DNA from: Alphaproteobacteria bacterium
GTDB lineage: Bacteria > Pseudomonadota > Alphaproteobacteria > Micavibrionales > Micavibrionaceae
Assembly: GCA_050633285.1 (NCBI GenBank)
Contig: JBOEGG010000001.1
Coordinates: 456,134-520,133 of the forward strand
Direction: 5' to 3'
DNA: 64,000 nt
Below, one piece after another: positions 32,698-42,789 of this stretch. The notes beneath the pieces were generated by a model. The model was not told the origin of the DNA. It did not search any database and saw nothing but the letters and a program-made list of their open reading frames with translations. Position 1 is the first letter of the stretch. The number at the start of each line of letters is the position of its first letter. A program made the translations under genes and the position numbers.

Positions 32698-32722
32698 TAG
32701 GCCTCGTTTGAGGCCTTTTTTT
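32698..32722 (+). terminator. Rho-independent terminator
   Basis: AGGCCTC-gtttg-AGGCCT followed by T7. Confidence 0.6.
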
Positions 32723-37456: not shown

Positions 37457-37494
37457 TTTGATGGCCTAGAGAGCCATAAGTAAATAATTCTAAA

Positions 37495-37518
37495 GCCTGG
37501 CGGTTGTCAGGCTTTTTT
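37495..37518 (+). terminator. Rho-independent terminator after the MCP gene
   Basis: GCCTG-gcggttgt-CAGGC followed by T6. Confidence 0.55.
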
Positions 37519-37632: not shown

Positions 37633-37707
37633 TGGAGCGAGTGAAGAGATTCGAACTCTCGGCCCCAACCTTGGCAAGGTTGTGCTCTACCCCTGAGCTA
37701 CACTCGC
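37633..37707 (-). tRNA. tRNA-Gly (anticodon GCC)
   Basis: Hand-folded: acceptor GCGAGTG/CACTCGC, D-arm GCTC…GAGC, anticodon stem CAACC/GGTTG with loop TTGCCAA, T-arm GAGAG-TTCGAAT-CTCTT, encoded CCA. Confidence 0.9.
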
Positions 37708-40331: not shown

Positions 40332-40514
40332 ATGGTTGTTGAAATAGATCCAAAATTATTGGAAATCCTTGTATGCCCTGTAACAAAGTCACCGTTGACG
40401 TATGATAAAAAGGCGCAAGAGTTAATTTCAGAACAAGCAAAGCTAGCATATCCGATCCGTGATGGTATTCCGATCATGTTGGTTGATGAAGCGCGTAAAT
40501 TGGAACAAGCGTAA
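40332..40514 (+). CDS. Trm112-family protein
   Basis: [14 protein letters not shown]…[12 protein letters not shown]; the complete Trm112 signature. Confidence 0.85.
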
Positions 40515-40526
40515 AGGACGTAAAAG

Positions 40527-40778
40527 ATGAGCGTTAAAGACGTAGGACTTGGCGGTACAGTATGGATAAGGGCAGCGCAGGAAAAAAAGCCTGCTGTTCC
40601 TAAGCCTGCTAAAACTGAGGCTGGCAATAAAAAGCCGGGTTCAGATGATCCTTCGCGTGAGACGAGCGACTATTCTGAAGAAAAACAAGCCGAAGCACAC
40701 ACATATCGTTTTGATAAAGATGGTGCGCAGCCTGATGAGCCTGAGAATATAGGCTCAAACATTGACTTAGACATATAA
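40527..40778 (+). CDS. Hypothetical low-complexity protein (83 aa)
   Basis: AAGGA RBS; Lys/Pro/acidic-rich, likely disordered. Confidence 0.35.
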   Translation: MSVKDVGLGGTVWIRAAQEKKPAVPKPAKTEAGNKKPGSDDPSRETSDYSEEKQAEAHTYRFDKDGAQPDEPENIGSNIDLDI

Positions 40779-40812
40779 AATACGTTAGAAAGATTTTATG
40801 AACACGAAGCCA

Positions 40813-40857
40813 ATGAACACATTACTGCTTCTAAACATTCTCCTTATACACCCCTGA
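40813..40857 (+). CDS. Leucine-rich leader peptide MNTLLLLNILLIHP (leu attenuator)
   Basis: 14 codons, 6 of them Leu (TTA CTG CTT CTA…CTC CTT), ending in TGA inside a hairpin-forming region about 120 bp upstream of leuA. Confidence 0.55.
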   Translation: MNTLLLLNILLIHP

Positions 40858-40910
40858 GCGGTGTATGAGGCATTTTATATGCCTGCGCTACAGGGGTTTC
40901 ATAATTATCC
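40851..40910 (+). promoter_or_regulatory. Attenuator hairpin(s) downstream of leu leader peptide
   Basis: Outer stem CCCCTG(40851-56)/CAGGGG(40891-96). Inner stems ACACC…GGTGT and AGGCAT-tttat-ATGCCT. Followed by TTTCATAATTAT. Confidence 0.45.
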
Positions 40911-40976
40911 AAACATTGAAAAATATAGTCGCATAAGTTAGAAAATCTGTGCGCTTAAGCGAATAAATAAGGAATT

Positions 40977-42560
40977 TTGGCCATGAGTAGAGCCTACGAT
41001 ATTGTAAAGAACGATCCAAACCGCGTTATCATTTTTGATACGACCCTAAGAGATGGGGAGCAGTCCCCCGGTTGCGCCATGAATTTGGAACAAAAGCTTA
41101 AAATGGCGAGTATTCTGGATGAGCTTGGTGTTGATGTGATTGAGGCTGGCTTTCCTGTGGCATCCCCCGGCGATTTTGAGGCGGTAAACGAAATTGCAAA
41201 GCTTGTTAAGAACGCGACTGTTTGTGGTTTGTCGCGTGCGAAAAAGGGTGACATTGAGGCATCTGGTGAGGCAATAAAGCCGGCAGAGTCAAAACGTATC
41301 CATACCTTTATCTCAACCTCTCCATTACATATGAAGTATAAGCTTCAAATGTCTCCTGAAGATGTCCTTGAATCAGTTAAGGAAAGCGTCACATTTGCCC
41401 GTAATTTCACTGATGATGTGGAATGGAGTGCAGAGGACGGATCGCGTACAGAGGATGATTTTTTGTGCTTGTGTGTAGAAGCTGCGATTAATGCAGGCGC
41501 ACGCACGATCAATTTCCCTGATACGGTTGGTTATGCTTTACCTGATGAATTTGCGGCAAAAATCGCAATGATGATGGAACGTGTACCGAATATCGATCAG
41601 GCGATCATCTCAACCCACTGCCATAATGATCTCGGCGTTGCGGTTGCGAACTCTTTGGCAGGCGTCACGGCAGGGGCACGTCAGATTGAATGTACGGTTA
41701 ACGGTATTGGTGAGCGTGCAGGAAATGCGGCGCTTGAAGAGGTGATTATGGCCTTGCGTACACGCGCAGACTTGATGCCCTACACAAATAATATTGAAAC
41801 AACCAATATTACCAAGGCGTCCCGTACCTTGTCTGGTATTACAGGGTTTTCTGTTCAGCCAAACAAAGCCATTGTCGGTGCGAATGCGTTTGCTCATGCA
41901 AGTGGTATTCATCAGGATGGTATGCTTAAAAATGCGAACACGTATGAGATCATGACTCCCGAAAGTGTAGGCTTGAGCGAAAGTAAATTGGTGATGAGCA
42001 AGCACTCAGGCCGTCATGCTTTTCGTGAGAAGTTGAAGGAGTTGGGCTTTGAACTGGGTGATAACGCTCTTAACGATGCATTTGCACGTTTTAAAAACTT
42101 GGCTGATCGTAAAAAAGAAGTCTATGAAGACGATTTAATCGCGCTTGTCGAGGATGAAATCGTGAGTGAAAATGATAGTATCCAATTTGTATCCTTACAG
42201 GTACAAGCAGGAACATCAGGTCCACAAACCGCAGATCTGTGTTTAAGTATTGATGGTGAAGAAAAATGCGCAAAGGTCGAAGGAAACGGCCCTGTCGATG
42301 CGATATTTAAGGCAATCCGTGAAATTCAAGCACATCCGGACGCGTCTTTGCAGCTCTATCAGGTGCATGCCGTCACAGGCGGAACAGACGCGCAAGCCGA
42401 GGTAACAGTACGTTTAGAGGAAAATGGCAAGACCATTAACGGATCAGGGGCGGACGCAGATACGTTGGTCGCGAGTGCACGTGCTTATGTTCATGCGTTG
42501 AATAAGCTGCTAGCCAAGCGCGATACCTTTAATCCGCAAACAGGCGATATCGCGGTGTAA
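40977..42560 (+). CDS. leuA: 2-isopropylmalate synthase
   Basis: VIIFDTTLRDGEQSPG; HCHNDLG; C-terminal LeuA regulatory domain. Confidence 0.9.
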   Translation: MAMSRAYDIVKNDPNRVIIFDTTLRDGEQSPGCAMNLEQKLKMASILDELGVDVIEAGFPVASPGDFEAVNEIAKLVKNATVCGLSRAKKGDIEASGEAIKPAESKRIHTFISTSPLHMKYKLQMSPEDVLESVKESVTFARNFTDDVEWSAEDGSRTEDDFLCLCVEAAINAGARTINFPDTVGYALPDEFAAKIAMMMERVPNIDQAIISTHCHNDLGVAVANSLAGVTAGARQIECTVNGIGERAGNAALEEVIMALRTRADLMPYTNNIETTNITKASRTLSGITGFSVQPNKAIVGANAFAHASGIHQDGMLKNANTYEIMTPESVGLSESKLVMSKHSGRHAFREKLKELGFELGDNALNDAFARFKNLADRKKEVYEDDLIALVEDEIVSENDSIQFVSLQVQAGTSGPQTADLCLSIDGEEKCAKVEGNGPVDAIFKAIREIQAHPDASLQLYQVHAVTGGTDAQAEVTVRLEENGKTINGSGADADTLVASARAYVHALNKLLAKRDTFNPQTGDIAV

Positions 42561-42570
42561 AGGAGAAAAA

Positions 42571-42789
42571 ATGTTCCAGATTGGAGACAAGGTAATTGTT
42601 TCTAAAGACGGTGGTTGGAAAAATGATTGTTCAGGTGTTATTTGTAGTGCACCTGAGCCAATAGACACGTTGAAAGGGCCTGAGAATTTTTACTGGGTTA
42701 GGTTTGATCAACCAGAGCAAGATGTAAATGGGGATGATGAATATATAAAGGCACAAGTTTTAAGTTGCTATATTTATGTATATAATTGA
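42571..42789 (+). CDS. Hypothetical small protein (72 aa)
   Basis: Perfect AAGGAG RBS 7 nt upstream of the ATG; follows leuA. Confidence 0.5.
   Translation: MFQIGDKVIVSKDGGWKNDCSGVICSAPEPIDTLKGPENFYWVRFDQPEQDVNGDDEYIKAQVLSCYIYVYN

Follow-up and report, generated by a model that had tools for sequence, protein, structure and literature searches.

Background

Is leuA, the gene for 2-isopropylmalate synthase, controlled in Micavibrio-like alphaproteobacteria by translation of a short leucine-rich leader, and if so, at which step of its expression does that control act? The question is raised by a stretch of DNA from a member of the family Micavibrionaceae (GenBank assembly GCA_050633285.1, contig JBOEGG010000001.1, positions 456,134 to 520,133), in which leuA is preceded by a small open reading frame (ORF) with a run of leucine (Leu) codons and by overlapping inverted repeats. 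This stretch of 64,000 nucleotides (nt), with a G+C content of 43%, is called the window throughout, and coordinates refer to it unless a locus is named. A sequence-only reading of the window had proposed ribosome-mediated transcription attenuation of leucine biosynthesis.

We conclude that the leader is very probably a conserved, leucine-responsive leader-peptide attenuator of leuA. As to how it works, we lean towards ribosome-mediated control whose main output is translational, through sequestration of the Shine-Dalgarno (SD) sequence of leuA. The element is most likely a new variation on known leader-peptide attenuation. Such attenuation is textbook knowledge in enterics, whereas the regulation of leuA in alphaproteobacteria is poorly documented. 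Our literature search found no description of an alphaproteobacterial leuA leader, and the survey of proteobacterial attenuators by Vitreschak et al. (2004) may list such leaders.

The leader ORF and its conservation

The product of leuA scores 847.6 bits against its NCBIfam model (cut-off 729; Table 1) and is 87-89% identical to the LeuA proteins of uncultured Micavibrio-like alphaproteobacteria known from metagenome-assembled genomes. Its start codon, ATG 40983, was picked from SD spacing and from alignment with relatives. Upstream of it, the sequence-only reading had described a 14-codon ORF with four different Leu codons in a row, and this ORF is present at 40813-40857, encoding MNTLLLLNILLIHP and ending at the TGA at 40855-57. 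It is the 3' part of a longer frame, in which ATG 40813 is an internal, in-frame codon; the ATG at 40798 aligns with the sole ATG of the relatives, which therefore place the start five codons upstream and give a leader of 19 codons. Six of the 19 are Leu codons, four of them consecutive, and the stop codon lies about 125 nt before the leuA start, inside a strong hairpin.

A short ORF rich in leucine is not remarkable in itself. Under a lax criterion, the window holds 36 such ORFs against about 16 in shuffled sequence, and runs of at least four Leu codons occur at two loci only. The significance of the leader rests on its position and on its conservation among relatives. Conservation of the peptide upstream of leuA, which the sequence-only reading had named as a check, was found in these genomes. 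Micavibrio-like relatives carry an ORF of 16-21 codons before leuA, and its peptide ends in ..LLLLN(I/L)LL(I/M)x(P/L) followed by the stop. The first group of Leu codons (cluster 1, Table 1) is kept as three to five Leu codons across this clade, the individual Leu codons differ synonymously, and the stop codon keeps a fixed position in the 5' arm of the hairpin that we call H1. Of the three frames, that of the Leu codons stays open longest in 57 of 78 non-redundant loci, and 35% of its last 12 codons are Leu codons, as compared with 13% and 10% in the other two frames.

In distant, GC-rich relatives, the flank 5' of the hairpin reads ...CUN CGA CUU Axx xxC CCC UGA, so that the peptide ends in LRL(R/I/S)xP before the stop. 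This flank is near-invariant (CUN-CGA-CUU-A..CCCCUGA) across the GC-rich loci L019-L160 (for example L064:2853-2930 and L119:1108-1170). The CGA arginine codon is conserved there between two Leu codons.

Hairpin H1 is conserved and co-varies

The stop codon of the leader had been described as embedded in overlapping stem-loops, and two hairpins do contain it: in H1 it is part of the 5' arm, and in a second hairpin, A, it falls in the loop. The pairings that had been listed as three separate stem-loops are all present, but their arrangement differs: CCCCTG (40851-56) with CAGGGG (40891-96) and AGGCAT (40868-73) with ATGCCT (40879-84) are nested parts of H1, and only the third, ACACC with GGTGT, belongs to a different structure, being the inner part of hairpin A. 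The two hairpins are mutually exclusive because both use nucleotides 40851-70. H1 folds with a predicted energy of -24.9 kcal/mol (z = -4.0).

A covariance model of H1 built from nine sequences gave 42 matches in 618 kb, every one of them on the leuA strand and 35-185 nt upstream of leuA. With a second-round model, the H1 motif was found in 62 of 81 genome loci and 64 of 80 metagenome loci, that is, in 126 of 161 alphaproteobacterial leuA loci, a set that did not include Rhizobiales or Caulobacter. Apart from these, the second-round model matched the reverse strand of the same palindromic hairpins, as an echo, and gave a single weak match elsewhere (E = 0.078). In an alignment of 42 sequences, 99.6% of cells are paired (32-54% in slid controls), and compensatory changes occur at 10 of the 16 base pairs.

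The pairing extends to the codons that end the leader. Where the stop codon is UAG or UAA, the 3' arm of H1 matches it (UUAGGGG, UUAAGGG), and a change of CCC to CUC, which turns proline into leucine in the peptide, is accompanied by a change of G to A in the partner. Pairing of the RNA is therefore what constrains the base of H1.

None of the Rfam families, the T-box riboswitch model included, matched the window or 18 representative related loci. The covariance model Leu_leader gave no match in the window at its gathering score or at E values up to 10, and none in the 18 related loci. A second small ORF within H1 (GAGG-N8-AUG, with the AUG at 40880) was considered and rejected, since relatives have GUG or UGC in place of the AUG and also differ in their stops. 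Inspection for a downstream partner of the 3' arm of H1, corresponding to a "region 4", gave nothing convincing.

The leucine codons are predicted to pair with the Shine-Dalgarno sequence of leuA

The 20 nt immediately 5' of H1, which hold the last Leu-containing codons of the leader, are complementary to the translation-initiation region of leuA. In the window, the resulting helix, P0, joins codons 15-16 and the two following nucleotides (the anti-SD) to the leuA SD. It is present in both the minimum free energy (MFE) structure and the centroid of the whole predicted leader, where it encloses H1 and a small hairpin, H2.

P0 co-varies family-wide. In 38 non-redundant genome loci, cognate duplexes were more stable than non-cognate ones (-12.58 versus -9.32 kcal/mol), a difference that was reached in none of 50,000 permutations, and the same result was obtained in an independent set of 36 non-redundant metagenome loci (-11.90 versus -9.75 kcal/mol; 0 of 50,000 permutations). 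Two further comparisons, with reversed sequences of unchanged composition and with an internal segment of leuA, likewise showed the cognate duplexes to be more stable (Wilcoxon p about 1e-6 to 2e-5). Co-variant pairs of anti-SD and SD include UCCUUAUCG with CGAUAAGGA (loci L014 and L017), CCUUCCC with GGGAAGG (L010), UCCUUCU with AGAAGGA (L018, L022 and L015) and GGUCCUUCGA with UCGAAGGACC (L028 and L043), and a further pair, CCUCCUCCUUAGC with GCUAAGAGGAG, is found in L063. The duplex covers at least three nt of the SD core in 69 of 74 non-redundant loci.

Partition-function folding was used to predict the accessibility of the SD core. Its unpaired probability in the window rises from 0.03 in the free leader to 0.82 when nucleotides 40827-40854 are masked, a treatment that mimics a stalled ribosome and yields a thermodynamic prediction only. 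Over the 38 genome loci, the mean rises on masking from 0.19 to 0.46 (p = 3e-8). With 0.03, leuA has the second-lowest value among the window's 26 gene starts, its own among them, which were predicted crudely and have a median of 0.30.

Hairpin A, an alternative structure of the Micavibrio-like clade

Hairpin A folds with -15.5 kcal/mol (z = -4.4). In it, Leu codons 15-16 and the codons that follow them are paired with GGUGUAUGAGG, which includes the SD-like motif AUGAGG. Hairpin A is conserved in the clade: its topology is the MFE structure of this segment in all 18 Micavibrio-clade loci (-8 to -15 kcal/mol), with AUGAGG invariant. The inner stem varies in sequence yet stays paired (ACACC/GGUGU, GCCC/GGGC, ACCC/GGGU, UCCC/GGGA), and in nine sequences 84% of cells are paired, as compared with 32-50% in slid controls. 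AUGAGG resembles both an SD and the start region of leuA, and we infer that it is a decoy, holding the anti-SD while a ribosome is stalled in cluster 1. Hairpin A could also serve as a pause hairpin that couples transcription to translation of the leader.

In about 10 of the 18 clade members, the apical loop of H1 (40874-40878), which follows hairpin A, is rich in U (UUUAU, UUUUUA). Hairpin A together with this loop resembles a hairpin-dependent pause signal and is the top terminator-like site in 20 kb in a terminator scan. We rejected the combination as a terminator, since its polarity would be wrong, with transcription ending under starvation; moreover, the U-rich tract after A is found in only about 10 of the 18.

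Putative promoters and the probable start of the leader ORF

An ATG-anchored, ungapped comparison of 23 loci revealed conserved CTTGAC at -37..-32 and TTAaAaA at -13..-7 relative to the leader ATG. No SD was detectable before the leader ATG in these 23 loci, and duplex energies with the anti-SD ranged from +1.6 to -3.7 kcal/mol. The conserved geometry of the predicted promoter P1 (CTTGAC-N17/18-TAnAnA) places the transcription start on or beside the A of the leader AUG, and the leader ORF is therefore probably leaderless.

A second, sigma-70-like element, P2, lies between H1 and the SD. Its 17-nt spacing is conserved in seven of eight related loci despite different spacer sequences; it is kept in L001, L002, L005, L011, L081 and L083, and in L082 a spacing of 17 nt is obtained only with the alternative -10 element TAAAAG, the better hexamer, TATAAA, giving 15. 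The -10 element of P2 falls within an inverted repeat in several relatives (GCGCGATAG...CTATGCGCGC); this repeat may be an operator, or it may represent hairpin H2 in the RNA. An active P2 would give leuA tandem promoters, one of which avoids the leader.

A proposed model of translational attenuation

On the reading that we prefer, transcription would begin from P1 at the AUG of the leaderless 19-codon ORF. With Leu-tRNA in ample supply, the ribosome would pass the six Leu codons, terminate at the UGA inside H1 and depart. H1 would then fold, the freed codons 15-16 (UCCUUAU) would pair with the SD (AUAAGGA), and P0, enclosing H1 and H2, would form a compact structure that blocks initiation at leuA, leaving the gene off. 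When Leu-tRNA is scarce, a ribosome stalled on or near cluster 2 would physically cover the anti-SD, and during a stall in cluster 1 the anti-SD would be captured by the decoy AUGAGG in hairpin A. Either stall would keep the SD of leuA open, and leuA would be translated.

Several points weigh against this model. In the window, P0 comprises just 7 bp, is A/U-rich and has a duplex energy of -8.0 kcal/mol; it ranks a mediocre 14th of 38 when set against non-cognate partners, and the nearest relatives, L001 and L002, have an even weaker helix. Part of the P0 signal is generic, since CUN Leu codons are inherently complementary to purine-rich SDs. Phylogenetic relatedness among the loci keeps the statistics from being fully independent, and the alignments behind the counts of H1 pairs were fitted to the model. 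The step that involves cluster 1 needs kinetics, because at equilibrium H1 with P0 wins and the SD is not opened. The candidate promoter P2, if active, would yield a leuA mRNA without the anti-SD, bypassing the leader altogether, and the sequence that follows H1 in the window, UUUCAUAAUUAU, could permit some termination.

Is H1 a transcription terminator?

The strongest rival, though one that we consider unlikely, is classical transcription attenuation, as in the sequence-only reading: H1 would terminate transcription independently of Rho, with hairpin A as its antiterminator; ribosomes stalled in cluster 1 would allow A to form and transcription to read through, and without such a stall transcription would end before leuA. 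Much of the architecture agrees with this. The leader is conserved, two mutually exclusive hairpins are predicted with the regulatory codons just 5' of them, and the spacing from cluster 1 to A is that of classical attenuators. It is termination itself that is weak. A folding check for exclusive terminator and antiterminator structures had been suggested, and it did return two exclusive hairpins.

Evidence against termination comes from the tail of H1. The U/A-rich tract that had been reported about 70 bp before the ribosome-binding site of leuA is present (TTTCATAATTAT, about 70 nt before the SD), but it is only moderately U-rich, with four U in the first eight nt (UUUCAUAAUUAU; UUUCAUAA), and a terminator scan of the window did not call H1. 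In the closest relatives the tails are A-rich and without a U tract (AAAACUUCC in L001, AAUUUAAAAAA in L011 and AGUUAAAUCC in L002). Only three of 74 non-redundant loci have at least five U in the eight nt after H1, the median being two. A few relatives carry better U tails, such as L088 (UUAUUAUUUU) and L087 (UUUCCCUUUU), and termination may have been added in a few lineages, e.g. that of L088. Genuine terminators elsewhere in the window (at 32699, 44783 and 37492) carry T7 tracts. The one at 37492-37515, which served as the reference for the form of terminators in this genome, is bidirectional and canonical (AAAGCCTGGCGGTTGTCAGGCTTT, flanked by T/A runs) and adjoins a minus-strand gene for tRNA-Gly(GCC) at 37633-37707.

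The position of the stop codon leads to the same answer. Since it lies within the 5' arm of H1, a ribosome terminating there would melt the would-be terminator and prevent its folding. On the composition of the relatives' tails and on this geometry, H1 was rejected as a canonical terminator; the lack of a Leu_leader match also speaks against the classical scheme.

Other rival explanations

Rho-dependent attenuation or polarity is an improbable explanation for the leader as a whole. Untranslated RNA after the leader would let Rho terminate before or within leuA, and stalling or translation of leuA would prevent this. The absence of an intrinsic terminator agrees with such a scheme, Rho-dependent control has been suggested for leaders that lack terminators (PMC1262725), and sequestration of the SD would expose untranslated leuA, which makes Rho action a plausible secondary effect of the translational model. 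The linker between H1 and the SD, however, is neither C-rich nor G-poor (10 C and 10 G of 70 nt), and its length in most of the family is only about 50 nt (median 53.5 nt over 74 non-redundant loci, against about 70 nt in the window), which is short for a rut site. A rut site in the linker was rejected on this unfavourable composition and length, and the comparative data hold nothing that points specifically to Rho.

Least probable of all is that H1 and its conserved flanks (CGACUUA...CCCCUGA...UCAGGGGA) bind a protein or ligand and that most lineages carry the ORF only incidentally: both the base of H1 and its 5' flank are strongly conserved in sequence beyond the needs of pairing, the in-frame ORF of GC-rich relatives is long with only two or three Leu codons near its end, and a protein factor was favoured by the authors who described the actinobacterial LEU element (PMC1262725), but the frame, a nearby in-frame stop (even where UGA has become UGG) and the enrichment in leucine are all conserved, the ORF of the Micavibrio-like clade is short and of fixed length with a promoter-positioned AUG and synonymous variation among its Leu codons, and proline gives way to leucine when the stem co-varies, the base of H1 being kept as pairing and not as a recognition sequence.

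Relation to known leaders

We return to the proposed translational attenuator and compare it with known systems. In enterobacterial leuL (Rfam Leu_leader, RF00512), as here, four Leu codons in a row lie in a short ORF immediately before leuA. Its alternative hairpins are read by a stalling ribosome and low Leu-tRNA turns leuA on, and the same logic is proposed for the leader in the window. The alphaproteobacterial leader differs in that it is not matched by the leuL covariance model at E values up to 10, has no conserved U-tract terminator, carries its stop codon embedded in the main hairpin, is apparently leaderless and has Leu codons that are predicted to pair with the SD of leuA.

In translational attenuation of the ermC/cat type, when a ribosome stalls within a short leader, the pairing of the mRNA changes and a downstream SD is set free. 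Stalling in those leaders depends on a drug and the nascent peptide and sets off a cascade of hairpins, whereas here a ribosome stalled for want of charged tRNA-Leu would sit directly on the anti-SD.

The principle proposed here has been described for the actinobacterial LEU element (Seliverstov et al. 2005, PMC1262725), where a run of Leu codons and the SD of leuA pair to close off a compact structure. Shared features are an upstream ORF (uORF) with a Leu run, a base stem between Leu codons and SD, and the lack of an obvious terminator (PMC1262725). The two occur in different phyla and have no demonstrated sequence homology. The LEU element encloses a pseudoknot or alternative hairpin, whereas the leader described here encloses a simple long hairpin that contains the stop codon. 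The authors of that study doubted a ribosome-mediated mechanism for Streptomyces (PMC1262725), whereas the coding signal in our loci is strong. Within the alphaproteobacteria, the leader peptide of trpL/rnTrpL in S. meliloti is made from a small, leaderless ORF with which a biosynthetic mRNA begins (PMC10117765; PMC6614838), as is probable for the leuA leader. That attenuator is of the classical transcriptional type, has a terminator and senses Trp codons, and sequestration of an SD by the regulatory codons is not described there.

A bolder proposal, which we put forward tentatively and think rather more likely to be wrong than right, would make this a widespread leuA riboregulator of alphaproteobacteria outside the families of Rfam. 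The Leu codons of the uORF (leaderless in the Micavibrio-like clade) would themselves be the anti-SD, and a starved ribosome would de-repress leuA by occupying them; a decoy SD gained in the Micavibrio-like clade would have turned the element into a three-state switch, and the whole would be convergent with the unexplained actinobacterial LEU element. If true, this would suggest how the LEU element works.

The element bears on annotation. It is compact and defined by sequence, and its more than 100 natural variants with covariation suit it to a family of the Rfam type. Genome annotation gains a small ORF, its probable leaderless start and a cis-regulatory RNA. The locus is also a caution that not every "Leu leader plus hairpin" merits annotation as a transcription terminator. 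Should the translational mechanism be true, the design would be minimal, with sensing codons that are also the anti-SD nucleotides, and it would provide a testable explanation for the LEU element, which has long been ambiguous.

Features of the leuA locus

Table 1. Positions of the leader, its predicted structures and leuA in the window
Feature	Position	Strand	Description
Predicted promoter P1	40762..40791	+	-35 TTGACT (40762-67), 18-nt spacer, -10 TAGAAA (40786-91)
Leader ORF	40798..40857	+	19 codons and UGA, MNTKPMNTLLLLNILLIHP; start ATG 40798, stop 40855-57
Leu cluster 1	40822..40833	+	UUA CUG CUU CUA; four consecutive, all-different Leu codons
Leu cluster 2	40840..40847	+	CUC CUU (40840-45; codons 15-16) and AU; contains anti-SD UCCUUAU
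Hairpin A	40842..40870	+	11 bp; arms 40842-52 CCUUAUACACC and 40860-70 GGUGUAUGAGG; stop codon in loop
Hairpin H1	40851..40896	+	lower stem CCCCUGAGCG / CGCU(A)CAGGGG; upper stem AGGCAU / AUGCCU
Helix P0	40841-47 and 40967-73	+	UCCUUAU with AUAAGGA; 7 bp, duplex -8.0 kcal/mol
Linker from H1 to SD	40897..40966	+	A/U-rich; 29 A, 21 U, 10 C, 10 G; contains P2 and H2
Promoter-like P2	40916-40944	+	sigma-70-like; TTGAAA (40916-21), N17, TAGAAA (40939-44); between H1 and SD
Small hairpin H2	about 40929-40962	+	within linker
leuA SD region	40967..40973	+	AUAAGGA; 3' strand of P0
leuA	40983..42560	+	2-isopropylmalate synthase, 525 aa; NCBIfam NF002087

Upstream of the leader lies a Trm112/YcaR-like gene (40332-40514), followed by an ORF of 83 aa (40527-40778) that has no match in NCBIfam and whose 3' end contains the -35 element of the leader promoter. 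In relatives L005, L013, L014 and L017, the Trm112-like gene (C-terminus ...DEAR..) abuts the leader promoter directly, and the 83-aa ORF therefore looks like a lineage-specific insertion. On the 3' side, separated from leuA by 11 nt, is an ORF of 72 aa (42571-42789), likewise with no match in NCBIfam, which may be co-transcribed with leuA.

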